Shown here: positions 4,965 to 55,828 of the stretch, in pieces
Layout of the letters: each line of letters starts with the position of its first letter
Numbering within the stretch: the stretch's first letter is position 1
Source: Mycobacterium phage prophiT37-1
Strand: one strand, 5' to 3'
Sequence record: OQ417969.1
DNA length: 64,000 bases
Notes under the pieces: model-generated
What the model was told of the DNA's origin: nothing
Seen by the model: only the letters and a program-made list of their open reading frames with translations
The model's database searches: none
Program-made: the position numbers and the translations under genes

Positions 4965-5909
4965 GTGCCGCGCGACCATGGTCGGATTCTTACAATCATT
5001 TGGCGGGACAAAGACTTTCAGCAGCGTTCCGTGGAGGCACAGCGCATGTACATGCTTCTGTTGTCGCAGCCGAATGTGAACAATGCCGGTGTCCTGCCGC
5101 TGCAACTAAGCAAGTGGGCGAAGGGCTGCGAGCAGACCAGCGTCGCCGATGTACGCCGCGCTACAAACGAACTCGCCGAGCACCTCTATGTGGCCTACGA
5201 CGAGGACACCGAGGAACTGCTGGTCCGCTCGTATATTCGCAACGACGGCGTGCTTAAGCACAAGTACCTGTTCGCTAACGCTCTGAAATGCGCCCAGGCC
5301 GTCGAATCACCTAGCCTGCGTGCGGTACTGGCGGCCGAGTTGCGGCGCACCCGCCGTGCCGATGCGGTGACGGTCGCCAACCAGATCGACCCGTCTGGCC
5401 CCGGCCCAGACGGCACCCCGACAGACCCTAGGCCGGACGACGACCCAACGTCCCCAGACAGTGACCTCGACGGCATTTCGATGCCATCTGAAACCGACCC
5501 CAATGGCATCGAAAACCCATCGCAAACCGATGTGCCATTGGAATGCCATTCCGATGGCATCGGGATCACTAGGGGGAAGGGGAAGGGGAGGGGGAAGGGG
5601 TCACCTTGGGTAGGTGGTTACGTTGGGGAGGCGCCCACCCGCTGCCCTAAGCACATCAACGACCCACACCCCCCAAACTGCCGCGACTGCATGACAGCCC
5701 GACTGGCATCCGAGGCAGCCGCCCAGGAGGCAGCTGAACGTCAGAAGTCAGACCGGGCAGCAGCCCTGGCCCGACGCGAGGCGTGCACCCGCTGTCAGGG
5801 CGGCGGCTGGATCGAGGCCGACGACGGTTCCGGCGTCCTGCCCTGCACGTGCCGTAAACCCCTACAGCTCGTCCCACACCCCACCGACGCGCAGAGGGCA
5901 GCAGGATGA
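4965..5909 (+). CDS. hypothetical protein with acidic/Pro-rich linker and C-terminal zinc ribbon
   Basis: GTG at 4965 preceded by aaggagat RBS. C-terminus has CPKH...CRDC...CTRC...CTC. The annotated 4620 start overlaps the upstream gene in another frame. Confidence 0.5.
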   Translation: MPRDHGRILTIIWRDKDFQQRSVEAQRMYMLLLSQPNVNNAGVLPLQLSKWAKGCEQTSVADVRRATNELAEHLYVAYDEDTEELLVRSYIRNDGVLKHKYLFANALKCAQAVESPSLRAVLAAELRRTRRADAVTVANQIDPSGPGPDGTPTDPRPDDDPTSPDSDLDGISMPSETDPNGIENPSQTDVPLECHSDGIGITRGKGKGRGKGSPWVGGYVGEAPTRCPKHINDPHPPNCRDCMTARLASEAAAQEAAERQKSDRAAALARREACTRCQGGGWIEADDGSGVLPCTCRKPLQLVPHPTDAQRAAG

Positions 5910-10917: not shown

Positions 10918-11121
10918 CTAGCCTTTCTCTGCCTGGATGTTTCGCCGTTCGACCTCGGCTAGGGTTTCGGCTGCGAGCTTGTCGGCCGCTTCGTTGGTCA
11001 GCCGGACTCCGTCGCCGACAAGGAACTCTTCCTTGTCGAGGTCGATGTCGTCGACGACCAGGTCATCGCCGAAGGTGAGGCGCTTGAGGTCGGCTTCGCT
11101 GTGACTGCTCATGAGGGTCAT
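10918..11121 (-). CDS. BrnA-like ribbon-helix-helix antitoxin (putative)
   Basis: 67 aa, acidic. C-terminal VRLTNEAADKLAAE resembles an RHH beta-strand/helix. ATGA overlap with the upstream toxin gene. Confidence 0.45.
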   Translation of the reverse strand: MTLMSSHSEADLKRLTFGDDLVVDDIDLDKEEFLVGDGVRLTNEAADKLAAETLAEVERRNIQAEKG

Positions 11122-11369
11122 TGTGCCCCTCCTTTCCGGTACTTGGTGGGCATGGCGTGGATGCATACCCAGGTCCAGTCCTGGGTGGCGTGTGGGACCA
11201 GGATCAGCTCCAGCTCTACACCGGTGTCGTCGGTGCCTATGAAGTAGAGGCGCCAGATGCCGTCGCGGTTGTCGACGAGCAGCGGCATACCGGCGTTGCG
11301 GAGTGCTGCCATGACGCGGCGCTTGTTGGCGCGCATCCGCGCTTTCGCTGTGAGTGTCACTCTTGCCAT
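11118..11369 (-). CDS. BrnT-like (DUF497) toxin (putative)
   Basis: 83 aa. The pattern GIWRLYFIGTDD...ELILVPHA...WVCIHAMPTKYRK resembles the BrnT ribonuclease toxin fold signature. Gene order toxin-then-antitoxin matches BrnTA. Confidence 0.45.
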   Translation of the reverse strand: MARVTLTAKARMRANKRRVMAALRNAGMPLLVDNRDGIWRLYFIGTDDTGVELELILVPHATQDWTWVCIHAMPTKYRKGGAQ

Positions 11370-11379
11370 GACTCAGAAT

Positions 11380-11395
11380 GTATAGCGCACTATAC
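11380..11395. promoter_or_regulatory. 16-bp palindromic operator/promoter motif GTATAGCGCACTATAC (site 1)
   Basis: Inverted repeat GTATAG-N4-CTATAC 10 bp upstream of the minus-strand BrnT start. The minus-strand reading gives TATACATT as a -10-like element. Confidence 0.6.
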
Positions 11396-11427: not shown

Positions 11428-11443
11428 GTATAGCGCTGTATAC
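11428..11443. promoter_or_regulatory. 16-bp palindromic motif GTATAGCGCTGTATAC (site 2, one mismatch)
   Basis: 10 bp upstream of the 11454 ATG. Together with site 1 forms a symmetric divergent control region; both flanks read tgagtcATG. Confidence 0.55.
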
Positions 11444-11453
11444 GTTTTGAGTC

Positions 11454-11783
11454 ATGAAAAGCCTTTATGTAAAACGTATTGCCGTCATTGGCGCCGCCAT
11501 AGCCGCCCTAACGGCACTCCCAACTGCCACCGCTTCCGCGTTCCCCGACCGTTGCCTGTACGCCGCGACAGACGCCAAGACCTGCCTGGGTGCCCGACCG
11601 GCACCCTTCACGCCAGCAGGCGGCGGCGGATACAAGCCCCCGGAGGACCCGGAATGCCCCGAGGGCCAGCACCATCCACCTACAGCTCCTGGCGCGGGCG
11701 AGACTGGAGGTAACAGCGCTGGTAGCGGGTCTGCCGGTAGCGGTGGGTCCTCGGCGAGTGGAGGGGCTGGTACCGGACGGTGA
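11454..11783 (+). CDS. secreted Gly/Ser/Pro-rich protein
   Basis: Signal-peptide-like N-terminus (VIGAAIAALTALPTATASA) followed by low-complexity G/S/P sequence. Confidence 0.45.
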   Translation: MKSLYVKRIAVIGAAIAALTALPTATASAFPDRCLYAATDAKTCLGARPAPFTPAGGGGYKPPEDPECPEGQHHPPTAPGAGETGGNSAGSGSAGSGGSSASGGAGTGR

Positions 11784-11837
11784 TGGTCGCGGCTACCGAG
11801 CGGCTATACAGCCAAGCCCCAATCCTGTTGCCGCACC

Positions 11838-11855
11838 GCTATACCGCGGTATAGC
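11838..11855. promoter_or_regulatory. everted 18-bp perfect palindrome GCTATACCGCGGTATAGC upstream of the ncRNA array
   Basis: Same half-sites as the 16-bp motif but in CTATAC...GTATAG order. A second CTATAC lies in a GGCTATACAGCC hairpin at 11802-11813. Confidence 0.45.
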
Positions 11856-11886
11856 TTCGTTTACAGACAACAAAACAGCGGACGAC

Positions 11887-12010
11887 GTGAACAGGATGCA
11901 GGTCGGTTATCTCGGGGTACGCCCCCGTAGTTCAAGTTAGAACGCCCCGAGCCAAGCGGGGAAATGGATCCAAACCCGCCCAGCGCCAACCACGTTCACG
12001 TCGTTCCCCA
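11887..12010 (+). ncRNA. Y-RNA-like repeat unit 1 (degenerate)
   Basis: Shares the 5' motif GTGAACAGGATGCAGGTCGGTTAT and the 3' ...CACGTTCAC tail with units 2-6. Internal hairpins present but no clear T-arm. Confidence 0.35.
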
Positions 12011-12036
12011 GACCACAACTACATAGACACCAGGTG

Positions 12037-12168
12037 GTGCGAGCAGGACGCAGGTCGGTTACCACTTGCTAATGGAGAGGTCGCGGGTTCGAGTCCCGCC
12101 AGCCAGCCCCCGGCTGTAGCTCAGTTGGCAGAGCGCTAAACCCCGGTCAGCACACACACGTTCGCCCC
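12037..12168 (+). ncRNA. YrlA-like Y RNA unit 2 with circularly permuted tRNA-like module
   Basis: 5' GAGCAGGACGCAGGTCGGTTACC. T-arm GCGGGTTCGAGTCCCGC. Closed acceptor-like stem CAGCC-loop-GGCTG. TA then D-arm GCTCAGTTGGCAGAGC. 3' CCCCGGTCAGCAC + ACACACGTTCGCCCC. Element order T-arm then acceptor then D-arm is the reverse of a genuine tRNA. Confidence 0.55.
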
Positions 12169-12197
12169 ATCACCAACACAACTCCATACATAACAAG

Positions 12198-12330
12198 GTG
12201 TGAACAGGACTTCGTTCGGTTATCTCCTTTCCTGAGAGAGACGCGGGTTCGAATCCCGCCAGCCGCGAAAGTGGTTGTAGCTCAGTGGCCTAGAGCGCTA
12301 AAACCCGGACGACACCCACACGCTCACACC
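12198..12330 (+). ncRNA. YrlA-like Y RNA unit 3
   Basis: T-arm GCGGGTTCGAATCCCGC, closed stem CAGCC...GGTTG, D-arm GCTCAGTGGCCTAGAGC. The 5' GUUCGG and 3' CCGGAC motifs show a compensatory change relative to GGUCGG/CCGGUC in other units. Confidence 0.55.
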
Positions 12331-12364
12331 ACCTCAAACACCAGCAGACGCAGGCGCGCAGGCG

Positions 12365-12500
12365 GTGTGGACAGGACGCAGGTCGGTTACCAAAACAGTC
12401 AGGTGTGGGTTCGAGCCCCACCACCTCGCTCGCGGGGTGTAGCCCAATTGGTAGAGGCAATTGTCCATATACGCCGGTCAGCACTCCACACGCCCACACC
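12365..12500 (+). ncRNA. YrlA-like Y RNA unit 4
   Basis: 5' GTGTGGACAGGACGCAGGTCGGTTACC. T-arm GTGGGTTCGAGCCCCAC. Closed stem CACCTC...GGGGTG. D-loop-like AATTGGTAGAGG. 3' GCCGGTCAGCAC. Confidence 0.5.
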
Positions 12501-12531
12501 ACCTACGCGCACGCACGACAGACAACCCGAT

Positions 12532-12650
12532 GTGAACAGGACGCTCGGTCGGTTATCACTCAATTGGTTAATGCAGGTTCAAGCCCTGTCGCCCGCACCC
12601 AGTGCGGGTGTAAAAGCGAAATCCCGGTCAGCACACACACGTTCACATCA
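12532..12650 (+). ncRNA. YrlA-like Y RNA unit 5 (variant order)
   Basis: 5' GTGAACAGGACGCTCGGTCGGTTATC. D-loop-like AATTGGTTA, T-arm-like GCAGGTTCAAGCCCTGT, long hairpin CGCCCGCAC-CCA-GTGCGGGTG. 3' CCCGGTCAGCAC + ACACACGTTCAC. Confidence 0.45.
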
Positions 12651-12671
12651 CCCGCCCAATAGCCCCCGCGG

Positions 12672-12750
12672 GTGGCACGAGCAGGATCGCAGTCGGTTAC
12701 CCCACCCCTCGCAAGGATGACGAACCCCGGCCGCCCTTCACACGTTCGCG
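12672..12750 (+). ncRNA. Y-RNA-like repeat unit 6 (short, degenerate)
   Basis: 5' GAGCAGGATCGCAGTCGGTTACC and 3' ...TTCACACGTTCGCGCC motifs only. Very short body. Ends about 30 bp before the Rsr RBS. Confidence 0.3.
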
Positions 12751-12780
12751 CCGCCCGCACCTCTAACAAGGAGATGCACG

Positions 12781-14508
12781 GTGGACGTTCTCACCACTAT
12801 CGGAACCCGTAAGACGCCGCAGTCGCAGCAGGCGGACCCCCGGCAGGTGAAGAACTCCGCCGGTGGCTACACCTTCACCATCGACGACGAGGCCCTGCTG
12901 CACCGCTTCCTCACCCTCGGCACCGACGGCGGCACCTACTACACCAACGCCGCCGAACTCACCAGGGACACAGCGGCCGTCGTGCTCCGCGCAGCAGCGG
13001 CCGACCCGGTCCGCCTCGTCCAGCACATCGTCGAGGTGTCCGTGGATGGACGCGCACCTCGGCAGAACCCGGCCCTGTTCGCCCTCGCCATCGCCGCAGC
13101 AGCAGAGGACGTCGACGGCCGCCGCGCCGCCGCCGCAGCCCTGCCCACGGTCGCCCGTACCGGCACCCAGCTCTACACGTTCGTCAAGTACATGGAGCAG
13201 TTCCGCGGGTGGGGCCGCGCCATGCAGCGCGCCGTCGGTGGCTGGTACCTCGACAAGCCCGTCGACCGCCTCGCCTACCAGCTGGTCAAGTACCGGCAGC
13301 GCGAAGGTTGGATGCACCGAGACCTCCTACGCCTGTCCGGCCCGACCACCGCGGACCCGGCCCGCCGCCTCGCCTTCAACTGGGCGGTCGGCAAGGGCCT
13401 GAACGACTACATTGGCAAGGTCCAGCCCCTCACCGCCGAGCAGTTGAAGGCAGGGGAGCGCAACGCCTCCCGGCCCAAGCTGCCTAACGTCGAGCTGGCG
13501 GTTGACCACCCCCTGGCGATCATCGAGGACTTCGAGGACGCCCAGCGCGCCACCCAGCCCAAGGAATGGGTGAGCATCATTCGACGCGGTAACGGTCTTC
13601 CCTGGGAAGCGCTGCCCGACGTCGCGCTCAACTTCACGGCCGTGTGGGAAGCGCTGATTGAGCACGGGTTGCCGCAGACGGCTTTGATGCGCCAACTGCC
13701 TCGTTTGACCCGGCATGGAGTCCTGCATGGTGAATATCTGGACCGTGTCGTAGCTCAGCTCCAGGACGCCGACCGTCTACGCAAGGGCCGCGTCCACCCG
13801 GTCAACGTCCTGATCGCGCAGCGCACCTACGCGTCCGGGCGGTCGGCGCGCGGCGACTCCACCTGGACGCCGGAACGCAAGGTCGTGGACGCCCTGGACG
13901 CCGCGTTCTACAACGCCTACGGAGCGGTAGAGCCGTCGGGCGAGCCGTCGGGCAAGCGCACCTTGCTGGCGCTGGATGTGTCCGGCTCTATGGGCGCCGC
14001 TATCTCGGGTATGCCGCTGACATGCCGCGAGGCCGCAGCCGCACTCGCACTCGTCACCGCCAACGTCGAGCCGGACCACGAGGTCGTCGGCTTCACTGAC
14101 GGCCGTCAGGCCGCGCGCTCGGGCTACGGCTACCGGTCCCAGCACCTCATCACCCCGCTGGACATCACGCCGCGCCGCCGCCTCGACGACGTGTGCCGGT
14201 ACACCGCCGGACTCAGCTTCGGCGCCACCGACTGCGCACTCCCGATGCTGTGGGCACAGCAGTCCAAGCGCGAGTTCGACACGTTCGTGGTCATCACCGA
14301 CAACGAGACCTGGTTCGGCGACGTCCACCCGAACCAGGCGCTCCGCGACTACCGCAACAAGATGGGCATCAACGCCCGCCTGATCGTTGTCGGCATGACG
14401 GCAACCCGCTTCACCATCGCCGACCCCGCCGACCCCGGCCAGCTCGACGTATCCGGTTTTGACACGGCGGTACCACAGTTGATCTCGGACTTCTCGGCCG
14501 GACTGTAG
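12781..14508 (+). CDS. rsr: Ro60-like RNA-binding protein Rsr (TROVE domain + C-terminal vWA/MIDAS)
   Basis: GTG start with aaggagatg RBS. TROVE-like N-terminal and central region. C-terminal vWA with MIDAS motif LLALDVSGSMG. Sits directly downstream of the Y-RNA-like array. Confidence 0.8.
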   Translation: MDVLTTIGTRKTPQSQQADPRQVKNSAGGYTFTIDDEALLHRFLTLGTDGGTYYTNAAELTRDTAAVVLRAAAADPVRLVQHIVEVSVDGRAPRQNPALFALAIAAAAEDVDGRRAAAAALPTVARTGTQLYTFVKYMEQFRGWGRAMQRAVGGWYLDKPVDRLAYQLVKYRQREGWMHRDLLRLSGPTTADPARRLAFNWAVGKGLNDYIGKVQPLTAEQLKAGERNASRPKLPNVELAVDHPLAIIEDFEDAQRATQPKEWVSIIRRGNGLPWEALPDVALNFTAVWEALIEHGLPQTALMRQLPRLTRHGVLHGEYLDRVVAQLQDADRLRKGRVHPVNVLIAQRTYASGRSARGDSTWTPERKVVDALDAAFYNAYGAVEPSGEPSGKRTLLALDVSGSMGAAISGMPLTCREAAAALALVTANVEPDHEVVGFTDGRQAARSGYGYRSQHLITPLDITPRRRLDDVCRYTAGLSFGATDCALPMLWAQQSKREFDTFVVITDNETWFGDVHPNQALRDYRNKMGINARLIVVGMTATRFTIADPADPGQLDVSGFDTAVPQLISDFSAGL

Positions 14509-14514
14509 GAACGC

Positions 14515-14745
14515 GTGGACCCAAGGGCACAGCAGGCGCGGGAGCATCACCGGTTGCAGCGTGATGCCTCCCGCGTCGGCGAACAACACCGGTACGAACG
14601 GGACCGGCTAGTTCGCGAGTTATGGGCCACCGAACGAGAGAAGTGGACCTACGCCACTCTGGCCGCAGCGGTGACGTGCAGCCCGGGACTGATCCAGAAG
14701 ATTCTCGACGGCCGCACCCCAACCGCCCAACACGTCACCAGGTAA
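14515..14745 (+). CDS. small helix-turn-helix DNA-binding protein
   Basis: The segment WTYATLAAAVTCSPGLIQKILDGR looks like an HTH. Confidence 0.45.
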   Translation: MDPRAQQAREHHRLQRDASRVGEQHRYERDRLVRELWATEREKWTYATLAAAVTCSPGLIQKILDGRTPTAQHVTR

Positions 14746-14889: not shown

Positions 14890-14905
14890 GTATAGCGAAC
14901 TATAC
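14890..14905. promoter_or_regulatory. 16-bp palindromic motif GTATAGCGAACTATAC (site 3)
   Basis: 10 bp upstream of the 14916 ATG. TATACA would act as a -10 for a leaderless or near-leaderless transcript. Confidence 0.55.
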
Positions 14906-25842: not shown

Positions 25843-26087
25843 TGAAGGAGCAGGTCACCCAGTCGAGCGGTTCCGTCATCCGTCTGGACGACCACCGCAC
25901 CGTGGCCACCTCTAACCACCGCTGCATCAAGTGCGGTAGTGAGTGGTTCCGGCTGGACGGCACCCTGGCCGGACCCGGCGCACCCGCCCACGGCGCCGTG
26001 GTCCTGGCCGCGGACGACCGCATCCGCATCACCGGCTACTGCGGCACACCCCGCTGCCTGGAGTGCGGCCACCTGGTGGCGGTCTAG
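25842..26087 (+). CDS. hypothetical zinc-ribbon protein
   Basis: GTG at 25842. CIKCG...CLECG motifs. Confidence 0.4.
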   Translation: MKEQVTQSSGSVIRLDDHRTVATSNHRCIKCGSEWFRLDGTLAGPGAPAHGAVVLAADDRIRITGYCGTPRCLECGHLVAV

Positions 26088-55812: not shown

Positions 55813-55828
55813 GTATAGCGCGCTATAC
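55813..55828. promoter_or_regulatory. 16-bp perfect palindrome GTATAGCGCGCTATAC (site 4) with TTGCCT -35-like box at 55799-55804
   Basis: TATACT (55824-55829) lies 6 bp before the 55836 ATG, giving a leaderless-type promoter overlapped by the palindrome. Confidence 0.6.

Follow-up and report, generated by a model that had tools for sequence, protein, structure and literature searches.

A row of six Y-RNA-like units precedes the Ro60 gene (rsr) of a Mycobacterium abscessus prophage

The window analyzed here, a single 64-kb stretch of DNA, belongs to a prophage of Mycobacterium abscessus that is MabK-like in its cluster affiliation and shares 96% identity with prophiGD43A-5 (cluster MabK); the prophage setting proposed by an earlier reading made without database searches (hereafter, the sequence-only reading) is confirmed. 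At the locus under study, six Y-RNA-like units lead into rsr, a gene predicted to encode a Ro60 orthologue (Table 1). Pfam (TROVE, 5.8e-47; vWA_Ro60, 2.2e-63), PDB (2nvo, 2.8e-101; 1yvp, 1.2e-97; 9nen, also in the E range of 1e-97 to 1e-101) and the translation from the GTG start codon at 12781 agree with the earlier identification of this protein, in that a TROVE HEAT-repeat ring is combined with a vWA domain carrying the MIDAS motif, and the product can be assigned to the Ro60/Rsr proteins on these features. The core of the array ends at 12749, or at 12756 once the flanking stem is counted, close to the distance of about 30 bp before rsr given previously.

Directly 3' of rsr, a 76-aa ORF may be co-transcribed with it, although its operon membership is uncertain; the corresponding product in prophiGD43A-5 (76 aa) matches HTH_31 at E 7.9e-4 and 20 bits, below the Pfam cut-off of 27. 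The ten downstream genes and the ORFs overlapping or flanking the array matched only families of unknown function in Pfam and PHROGs, besides the upstream BrnT, and the same searches found no PNPase, RtcB or CCA-adding enzyme among the neighboring genes and thus offered no functional clue. A BrnT/BrnA toxin-antitoxin pair lies just upstream of the array on the opposite strand. Across units 3-6 runs a 149-aa ORF (12271-12720), which was discarded as a gene because it is without a family match and is broken by 1-nt indels in close relatives.

Upstream of unit 1 we noted a candidate promoter/operator that may drive the array. The window contains 16 copies of the half-site GCTATAC (1.8 expected), and positions 11838-11855 were also marked as a hairpin by a terminator scan. 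According to a promoter/terminator scan of the array, the units are separated by no promoter-like or terminator-like site, and unit 6 directly adjoins the ribosome-binding site of rsr; both observations support co-transcription of the array with rsr. Counting against expression of the units, the prophage is reported as mostly silent in RNA-seq of lysogens (PMC8092301).

Table 1. Positions of the array, its units and adjoining features in the window
Feature	Position	Strand	Description
Candidate promoter/operator of the array	11828-11858	+	TTGCCG, spacer, palindrome GCTATACCGCGGTATAGC overlapping a TANNNT-type -10 box TAGCTT; read from sequence
Y-RNA-like array, six units	11880-12756	+	Upstream of rsr by 24 nt
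Unit 1	11880-12006	+	13-bp terminal stem; degenerate stem II GCAGGUCGG/CCGCCCAGC
Unit 2	12033-12174	+	YrlA-type; of the units, nearest to M. smegmatis YrlA
Unit 3	12197-12330	+	YrlA-type; 7-bp acceptor-like stem, GAAA loop; D arm GCUCAGUGGCCUAGAGC
Unit 4	12360-12504	+	YrlA-type; variant T stem GUGGG/CCCAC; variant D arm
Unit 5	12529-12649	+	Y stem with bulged C, T arm GCAGGUUCAAGCCCUGU, 9-bp hairpin, without D arm
Unit 6	12670-12756	+	Minimal Y-RNA-like unit: 12-13-bp terminal stem, internal loop, stem II, small hairpin
rsr ribosome-binding site	12768-12773	+	AAGGAG; read from sequence
rsr	12781-14508	+	Ro60 orthologue, 575 aa, TROVE ring and vWA with MIDAS DVSGSMG; Pfam, PDB, translation
76-aa ORF directly 3' of rsr	14515-14745	+	ORF list; equals gene 53 in prophiGD43A-5

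The six units are recognizable by shared boxes, as the sequence-only reading had proposed. The 5' box CAGGAY-N3-6-TCGGTTAYC has six exact matches in the window, all at 11892-12701, compared with an expectation of 0.00 from 100 shuffles. A repeat search recovered this box in 5 copies, a 3' box CCGG...ACACGYYCRC in 4, and the T arm and the acceptor/D-arm junction GGCTGTAGCTCAGT in 3 each. The start and end strings quoted earlier hold only as an approximate consensus: unit 1 is without the CCGG box and has CCGCCCAGC in its place, unit 3 carries TTCGTTCGG and CCGGACGAC, unit 5 has one additional base, and unit 6 carries CCGGCCGCC. With the covarying flanks included, the units measure 87-145 nt, compared with the range of about 120-160 bp first suggested.

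Beyond the boxes, the units differ in what they carry. In units 2-4 a V region is followed by T arm, closed acceptor-like stem, UA and D arm, an arrangement already described for them from the T arm onward and now supported by sequence, RNAalifold and covariation; the quoted T- and D-arm strings are exact in unit 2 and occur as variants in units 3 and 4. Unit 2 is composed of a V-like hairpin CCACUUGCUAAUGG, T arm GCGGGUUCGAGUCCCGC, acceptor-like hairpin, UA and D arm GCUCAGUUGGCAGAGC, and in sequence it is very close to the complement of the 5' probe published for M. smegmatis YrlA. Units 3 and 4 contain the 7-bp acceptor-like stem that is the reported RNase P determinant (PMC4201824); in the latter it is closed by a CUCG loop and contains a G3.U70-like pair, and the D arm is followed by an additional segment. 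In unit 5, a D-loop-like AAUUGGUUAA is located 5' of the T arm, and the same module type occupies the same position in a clade with 75% Rsr identity. The module of unit 1 consists of three hairpins with neither a T nor a D arm, its stem II includes two non-canonical pairs, and every M. abscessus-type array keeps it in first place. Nearly all related arrays have a short last unit that adjoins the ribosome-binding site of rsr. The YrlA-like label thus applies fully to units 2-4, to unit 5 without its D arm, and to units 1 and 6 in the Rsr-type stem only; because these two are without a tRNA-like module, they are at most Y RNAs of another subtype.

Covariance model R1 detected all six units, although it and our regular expressions were built from these same sequences. 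Unit 2, a member of the training set, scored 129.9 bits, and units 3 and 4 scored 120 and 89.8 bits; three units outside the training set were also found, i.e., unit 5 (70.6 bits, E 4.5e-14), unit 1 (30.9 bits, E 5.7e-5) and unit 6 (29.2 bits, E 1.4e-4), the last two being weak (~30 bits). A seventh, weak match at 63929-64000 was rejected as a Y RNA, since it corresponds to the T arm in a 3' fragment of a tRNA located where the prophage ends.

A bipartite terminal stem with an internal loop or bulge, as expected of a Ro60-binding module, was found in all six units, and all six extended units pair their own ends in the minimum free energy (MFE) fold. When the core units were folded as single sequences, most MFE z-scores were not significant against shuffles; only once the covarying flanks had been added did unit 1 (-50 kcal/mol, z -3.0) and unit 3 (z -2.9, with the MFE structure equal to the expected architecture) stand out, and units 2 and 4 did not differ significantly from shuffles. 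Among 55 distinct units anchored on motifs only, the Y stem was paired in 82% of cells (21-34% with slid partners), with 103 double-change cells versus 40.4 +/- 5.8 after shuffling (0 of 500 shuffles reached the observed value) and a covariation score of 0.312 versus 0.141, where the counts pool paralogues and orthologues and are therefore non-independent. Pair 2/-2, for example, alternates between U-A (30) and C-G (23), and covariation extends beyond the core into the flanks by up to 10 bp (GAT/ATC, GGT/ACC, GGC/GCC, GAC/GTC). In stem II, conserved U.G and G.U pairs occur in 53/55 and 19/55 units, respectively, and these make sense only as + strand RNA. For 25 tRNA-like units, de novo folding with RNAalifold recovered the T arm, the D arm and, between them, the acceptor-like stem of 7 bp; the curated structure was paired in 92.2% of cells (33-42% when slid), with 85 double-change cells versus 28 +/- 4 and covariation at 7/7 acceptor-like pairs.

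No Rfam family matched anywhere in the window at gathering thresholds. The search with the Rfam YrlA model that the sequence-only reading had called for gave sub-threshold matches in units 2 (38.9 bits, E 9.5e-7, full length), 4 (28.5 bits, E 9.7e-4) and 3 (28.1 bits, E 1.2e-3, partial) compared to a gathering score of 69. The YrlA-type units of mycobacteriophage Bxz1 (32.5 bits) and of a Mycobacterium metagenome-assembled genome (MAG; 46 bits) also fall below 69, so the threshold is not discriminating for actinobacterial members; it was unreached at all three actinobacterial or mycobacteriophage loci scored. At the site of the Ro60-binding motif GNCGAAN0-1G, judged as equivalent by eye, the window units have GCAGGAYG (two mismatches), relatives have GCCGGAYG (one mismatch), and Bxz1 and one further locus (L072) have exact GCCGAAGG-type motifs. 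Taken with their position on the rsr strand, 24-900 nt ahead of the gene (i.e., inside the ~4 kb within which Rsr-linked RNAs are sought), the architecture, covariation, synteny and sub-threshold YrlA matches support a Y-RNA-like, in part YrlA-like, identity.

Linkage to rsr is strict among relatives. Across ~90 distinct rsr loci, all 303 R1 matches lie on the rsr strand and 302 of them upstream of rsr (47 loci gave 144 matches and 59 further IMG/VR loci gave 159). Related prophages have arrays of 4-7 units, and 19 of the 59 further IMG/VR loci have at least 4; one contig has 9, and Bxz1 has three units. Multi-unit Y-RNA-like arrays are thus common at phage rsr loci, and the earlier view that a six-copy array is unusual holds only weakly. 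Between prophage clades with 75% Rsr identity, module order reads E-A-A-D-B-C versus H-A-A-B-C, and since types and order are kept, the paralogues are maintained. The loop-motif variant, CAGGA or CCGGA, is uniform within an array and differs between arrays that share unit types, which fits co-evolution with one cognate Rsr. Some relatives also contain units with class-II-like D arms, and in Gordonia phage Forza similar units are located downstream of Ro, amid tRNA genes.

The locus belongs to a known RNA-protein system, of which it is a fairly ordinary representative. In M. smegmatis, Rsr binds YrlA, which is also cut by RNase P and acquires CCA (Chen et al. 2014, RNA 20:1715; PMC4201824). As in that Rsr/YrlA/YrlB system, the units here precede rsr, share its strand and include permuted tRNA-like modules with a 7-bp acceptor-like stem, unit 2 is close to the sequences implied by the published YrlA probes, and two-unit relatives from Mycobacterium MAG loci (L002-L004) mirror YrlA plus the T-arm-only YrlB. 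In contrast, the array here has six units where M. smegmatis has two, among them a three-hairpin type (unit 1) and a minimal type (unit 6) undescribed there, and it has a prophage location and the loop motif GCAGGAY instead of the GCCGGA of L002-L004; moreover, the M. smegmatis RNAs were demonstrated experimentally, whereas those of the window are predicted from sequence. The order of Rsr-binding stem, V region, T arm, acceptor-like hairpin and D arm is also that of Rfam YrlA (RF02553) and the Salmonella rsr-yrlBA-rtcBA operon, which shares conserved T and D stem sequences and the placement of RNAs and rsr in one transcript (probable here), but in the window the YrlA scores are 28-39 bits, there is no rtcBA or RtcR, and the RNAs precede rsr instead of following it.

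Cluster C phages Bxz1 and ET08 likewise have a phage Rsr (55% identity) with Y-RNA-like units directly upstream on the same strand, although these are lytic myoviruses with many tRNA genes, their loop motif (GCCGAAGG) is nearer the consensus, and in Bxz1 we counted three units (short, YrlA-type, short). Thermus phage phiLo, the only phage case with biochemistry, has a Ro60 that binds two Yrl RNAs encoded upstream as well as host PNPase (NAR 2025; PMC12135203); these RNAs (Yrl1 and Yrl2) were found by a CGAA motif and are not described as tRNA-like, and both the phiLo host and its Ro60 lineage are distant from the window prophage. Deinococcus radiodurans resembles the window in having several small RNAs upstream of rsr (Yrn1, Yrn2 and RNAs a-d), but its locus is chromosomal and stress-induced, its Ro-binding helix is metazoan-like on both strands, and its tRNA-like elements are arranged differently. 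In its RYPER complex, PNPase is linked to Rsr by a Y RNA, which also gates the Rsr cavity (PMC4201824). A common Ro60-type stem with differing distal modules also recalls metazoan Y RNAs, although those are separate Pol III genes without a tRNA-like module and with a different bulged-helix sequence. The four human Y RNAs are paralogues with one Ro60-binding stem, whose distal loops recruit different partners.

We consider it probable that the leader of this temperate-phage rsr operon encodes six paralogous Y RNAs with a shared Rsr-docking stem and differing effector modules. In the proposed docking module, the RNA ends pair as a 9-13-bp terminal stem followed by an internal loop, whose 5' strand carries GCAGGAY as a putative local version of the Ro60-binding GNCGAA motif, and a second helix of ~9 bp (NNNNRUCGG/CCGGYNNNN) completes it; the distal effectors would be three YrlA-type tRNA mimics, an RNA with a T arm plus a hairpin, a three-hairpin RNA and a minimal RNA. 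For their expression and role we infer the following as the most likely course. A single operator-controlled early promoter may produce the array and rsr in one transcript, the linkers, which are short, A/C-rich and unstructured, may be cleaved by host RNases, and the 7-bp acceptor-like hairpins possibly by RNase P. The phage Rsr ring could then dock on every stem to form alternative Rsr RNPs, in which the Y RNA would gate the Rsr cavity and tether Rsr to host partners such as PNPase, as in RYPER and the phiLo complex, or, for the tRNA mimics, to tRNA elbow-binding proteins. The outcome would be a remodeling of RNA decay or quality control in lytic growth.

Parts of this evidence could be read differently. 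The lack of promoter-like or terminator-like sites separating the units, the end of unit 6 just 24 nt before the rsr start beside the ribosome-binding site, and the short unit always being last in relatives would also suit repeats whose role is confined to cis, forming a structured 5' leader for rsr mRNA (e.g., a row of Rsr sites autoregulating rsr translation or stability) that yields no separate stable RNAs. This is very unlikely, as the homologues in M. smegmatis (YrlA/YrlB), Salmonella and D. radiodurans are discrete Rsr-bound RNAs even when co-transcribed with rsr (PMC4201824), 7-bp acceptor-like stems make tRNA-like modules substrates for processing, and the downstream units of Forza imply that a leader position is not required. 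It is also quite improbable that the tRNA-like units serve mainly as Rsr-independent mimics or decoys against host tRNA-modifying or tRNA-cleaving defenses, or enter translation-related pathways: all units keep the Rsr-type stem with strict rsr linkage, and having no anticodon arm they cannot be decoys for anticodon nucleases. [quoted passage not shown] The G3.U70-like pair of unit 4, a potential alanine identity element, would point the same way but was dropped as evidence because it is not conserved in relatives.

That the region is a decayed or rearranged phage tRNA gene cluster without Y-RNA function is hardly credible. The Rfam tRNA model does score 40.3 bits over 12110-12267, and half of unit 2 is labeled tRNA-Thr in the prophiGD43A-5 record; however, the Rfam match fuses the D arm of unit 2 to the T arm of unit 3 across an insert of 99 nt, ARAGORN found 0 tRNA or tmRNA genes in the window, and neither ARAGORN nor Rfam revealed a genuine tRNA there (cloverleaf, anticodon arm, open acceptor stem). 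The permuted order with its closed acceptor-like hairpin is conserved and covarying, and units without tRNA features retain the same stem, which covaries over ~55 distinct relatives, contrary to the degraded cluster without a conserved helix on which the sequence-only reading would have been given up. The database tRNA-Thr can accordingly be corrected to half a Y RNA. As for a role at the DNA level, such as replication-origin iterons or protein-binding repeats, the direct repeats, which recur every 145-167 bp in non-coding DNA beside palindromes, are compatible with it, yet its probability is close to nil: compensatory changes maintain RNA pairing, including strand-specific G.U pairs, every R1 match over ~90 distinct loci is on the rsr strand, and TRF detects no genuine tandem repeat, the units being too divergent for it.

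Returning to six paralogous Y RNAs, a bolder and rather unlikely extension is that the array serves as a phage adaptor library, in which one Rsr and at least six Y RNAs address different host machines, or as a set of decoys for tRNA-directed defense enzymes. If so, array growth (up to nine units) would reflect an arms race with host RNA-based immunity. Experiments so far have dealt with no more than two Y RNAs in any one bacterium or phage (none of the papers searched names a third), and multi-copy loci are listed in the supplementary tables of Chen et al. 2014. Phage rsr operons commonly have 4-9 paralogues. Such arrays provide a test set for the tether/gate model, with one protein, one stem and varied modules that are each individually conserved, and the M. 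abscessus host-phage system is genetically tractable and of clinical interest.

Upstream of rsr, the gene for the prophage Ro60 orthologue, lie six Y-RNA-like units spaced 145–167 bp apart, and the evidence gives good support for a real Rsr/Y-RNA locus, carried by a temperate mycobacteriophage and comprising six predicted Y RNAs that are paralogues. The 5' box of the units, CAGGAY-N3-6-TCGGTTAYC, has exactly six matches in the 64-kb window, all on the plus strand and all in the array (0.00 expected from shuffles), and the 3' box, CCGG-N-ACACGYYCRC, is present in units 2–6, with a degenerate form (CCGCCCAGC...CCACGTTCAC) in unit 1. The linkers between units are 17–29 nt long, A/C-rich, and unpaired; a promoter/terminator scan found nothing promoter-like or terminator-like between units, and TRF reported no tandem array in the window as similarity between units is below 70%. 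The rsr product matches Pfam TROVE (5.8e-47) and vWA_Ro60 (2.2e-63), D. radiodurans Rsr (2nvo, 2.8e-101), and also vertebrate Ro60. The sequence-only reading had described a YrlA-like array before a Ro60 gene, and the six boxes, the ribosome-binding site, and the TROVE/vWA_Ro60 ORF with its MIDAS DVSGSMG show that description to be correct; the fit of its consensus strings is best for units 2, 4, and 5.

Positions of features in the window
Feature	Position	Strand	Remark
BrnT-like toxin and antitoxin BrnA	10918-11369	-	toxin: PHROG toxin family, 5.8e-36
16-bp palindrome GTATAGCRCRCTATAC	11380-11395, 11428-11443, 14890-14905, 55813-55828, 59980-59995, 60436-60451		intergenic
Unannotated 109-aa ORF	11454-11783	+	between BrnT toxin gene and array
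Inverted form of palindrome	11838-11855		just upstream of Y-RNA array
Units 1-6	11880-12756	+	
Equivalent of prophiGD43A-5 tRNA-Thr(tgt)	~12030-12108		
Unit 4 acceptor-like hairpin	12423-12440		7-bp stem CACCUCG/CGGGGUG
rsr ribosome-binding site	12768-12773	+	AAGGAG
rsr	12781-14508	+	GTG start at 12781; 575-aa ORF
tRNA 3' fragment (GGGGTTCGAATCCCTTCGGGCGCACCA)	63929-64000	+	extreme window end

A putative docking stem is common to all units. We gathered rsr loci from genome contigs and IMG/VR, extracted units by the two sequence boxes alone (no pairing rule was used), and counted pairing over 55 distinct units in a 16-pair scheme, consisting of a 6-bp terminal stem and, inside it, a 10-bp stem II ending UCGG/CCGG. 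In this scheme, 82% of cells were paired versus 21–34% with partners slid, double-change cells numbered 103 versus 40.4 ± 5.8 in shuffles (0 of 500 reached the observed value), and the covariation score was 0.312 versus 0.141. One pair of the terminal stem is U-A in 30 units and C-G in 23, a clean switch, and three to five pair types occur at each position in the variable half of stem II; U.G pairs are near-invariant and G.U pairs frequent, and the plus-strand RNA is therefore the selected molecule. The terminal stem runs 3–10 bp further, into apparent spacers, and these flanks covary too. When flanks were included, MFE folds had closed ends in all six window units and were better than shuffles for unit 1 (z -3.0) and unit 3 (z -2.9). 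On the 5' strand of the internal loop between the helices, the window units carry GCAGGAY, relatives GCCGGAY, and Bxz1 and one IMG/VR contig GCCGAAGG; judged by eye, the published Ro60-binding motif GNCGAAN0-1G sits at the equivalent position. The loop variant is the same across one array and differs between arrays that have unit types in common, as would be expected if all units co-evolved with one cognate Rsr.

The distal modules differ between units. In units 2–4, a V-like hairpin comes first, followed by the T arm (UUCGA loop), the acceptor-like hairpin, UA, and the D arm (GG in the loop); this arrangement, a tRNA with its permutation point at the anticodon, is the YrlA design. Unguided RNAalifold on 25 distinct tRNA-like units recovered the T arm, a 7-bp loop-closed stem, and the D arm, and in the curated structure 92.2% of cells were paired versus 33–42% when slid, with double changes in 19 of 31 pairs and covariation in 7 of 7 acceptor-like pairs. 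Module order, RNAalifold, and covariation support the permuted tRNA-like modules that had been proposed for these units. Unit 5 combines a T arm with a 9-bp hairpin and lacks a D arm, the module of unit 1 consists of three hairpins, and that of unit 6 is a small hairpin only. Some relatives carry a class II tRNA-type D arm (GUGGCAGAGCGGCCUAAUGCA) followed by a long extra hairpin (locus L031, 3239-3399; L038, 3665-3797; L040, 3761-3890), which raises the possibility that the tRNA class being mimicked varies from unit to unit. The acceptor-like hairpin of unit 4 has a G.U pair where alanine tRNAs would carry their identity pair, G3.U70; this is probably incidental, since relatives have G-C there.

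A covariance model trained on 25 tRNA-like units (R1) detected all six window units, with 129.9, 120, and 89.8 bits for units 2–4, as expected by construction, and 70.6, 30.9, and 29.2 bits for units 5, 1, and 6, which lay outside the training set. Its only other match in the window was a weak, truncated one (18 bits) to the tRNA fragment at the putative attR. A scan of both strands of 47 loci (419 kb) gave 144 R1 matches, every one of them upstream of rsr and in its orientation. A profile of Rsr proteins located a further 59 loci in IMG/VR, in which all 159 matches again had the orientation of rsr and, with a single exception, lay upstream of it. The Rfam YrlA model (RF02553) likewise matched units 2–4 (unit 2 full-length at 38.9 bits, E 9.5e-7; unit 4 at 28.5 bits; unit 3 partially at 28.1 bits), so that the YrlA assignment of the sequence-only reading found sub-threshold matches and none at the gathering score of 69 bits. 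YrlA-type units of Bxz1 (32.5 bits), which shares a mycobacteriophage cluster with a phage published as a YrlA carrier, and of a Mycobacterium MAG (46 bits) also fall short, and the threshold is therefore uninformative for actinobacterial members. Unit 2 closely matches sequences implied by published M. smegmatis YrlA probes, and two-unit loci (L002-L004) match the published YrlB probe (PMC4201824). The 40.3 bits of the Rfam tRNA model depend on a match that takes its D arm from unit 2 and its T arm from unit 3 and bridges 99 nt.

Permuted, covarying, and strand-specific structures of this kind contradict both a decayed tRNA cluster and repeats acting at the DNA level. A purely cis-acting leader is possible, although it conflicts with the behaviour of homologous units in three bacteria, and there is a small chance that the tRNA mimics are decoys acting without Rsr. 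Under the Rsr/Y-RNA reading, a single transcript would most likely span the six units and rsr, host endonucleases would cleave the linkers, RNase P may cleave the acceptor-like hairpins, and Rsr would bind each stem. The Rsr-Y RNA RNPs might then gate the Rsr cavity and tether Rsr to host factors, for which PNPase is a precedent in D. radiodurans RYPER and phage phiLo (PMC12135203); tRNA-elbow-binding proteins are proposed YrlA partners.

Six units are not very unusual, contrary to the sequence-only reading. Array-size counts are lower bounds, as the model is tuned to a single lineage. There are six units in M. abscessus-type prophages (seven in one, L030), five in a clade with 75% Rsr identity, two to five in other mycobacterial prophages, and three, counted by eye, in Bxz1. 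At least four R1 matches occur in 19 of the 59 further IMG/VR loci, and six or seven in 3 of the 59; L098 and L083 have six units each. The largest array found, nine units (seven R1 matches and two short ones by eye), lies on a 110-kb contig (L072 1875-2975; IMGVR_UViG_3300019888_000107) ahead of an Rsr gene at 56% identity. By module type, the window array reads E-A-A-D-B-C and the 75% clade H-A-A-B-C; the final two types hold the same positions in both, so these are distinct paralogues that have been maintained and not recently duplicated. Gordonia phage Forza (L049 4888-5735) has Y-RNA-like matches on the downstream side of Ro, intermingled with annotated genes for tRNAs and a tmRNA. The match at 5240-5365 (89.7 bits) occupies an unannotated gap; two others, which overlap tandem tRNA genes, may be the dimeric-tRNA artefact of which Chen et al. 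warned (PMC4201824). Rsr/Y-RNA loci are already known, and this one is valuable mainly because it clearly illustrates a wider, seemingly little described pattern of phage rsr operons with large Y RNA arrays, a common docking stem, and differing effector modules. In the literature searched (the tables supplementing Chen et al. 2014 and two reviews lay outside it), no bacterium or phage has more than two named Y RNAs.

Upstream of unit 1, we read TTGCCG-N16-TATAGCTT, which overlaps the palindrome GCTATACCGCGGTATAGC, as a candidate operator-controlled early promoter. The related palindrome GTATAGCRCRCTATAC, whose copies often have TCGACA-like -35 boxes before them, is probably a promoter/operator motif of the prophage; its half-site GCTATAC occurs 16 times in the window versus 1.8 expected. 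The BrnT/BrnA toxin-antitoxin pair upstream of the array is transcribed away from the Y-RNA/rsr operon, in an area placed among early lytic genes (PMC8092301), and the genes downstream of rsr are of unknown function. The 109-aa ORF, which is preceded by two palindrome copies, has a signal-peptide-like N terminus (MKSLYVKRIAVIGAA), a Gly/Ser/Pro-rich tail, and no match in PHROG.

Window positions 11800-14600 match Mycobacterium phage prophiGD43A-5 (MW584167.1), a cluster MabK prophage of 76.5 kb that occupies a tRNA attB in M. abscessus (PMC8092301), at 96.1% identity over the full length. In that record, the 1.4 kb before the 'Ro-like RNA binding protein' are unannotated except for tRNA-Thr(tgt), the sole tRNA annotated (26001-26079; L001 6231-6309). 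This feature coincides with the first half of unit 2, from the 5' strand through the V-like hairpin to the T arm, and is a false call as a tRNA, being part of a Y-RNA unit. ARAGORN found no tRNA in the window, where the unit 2 hairpin loop has one base more than in the prophiGD43A-5 call. On the right, the prophiGD43A-5 match extends as far as the window does, and the prophage ends there too; because the two ends coincide, the tRNA 3' fragment at this point probably represents the attR core, located within a host tRNA gene.
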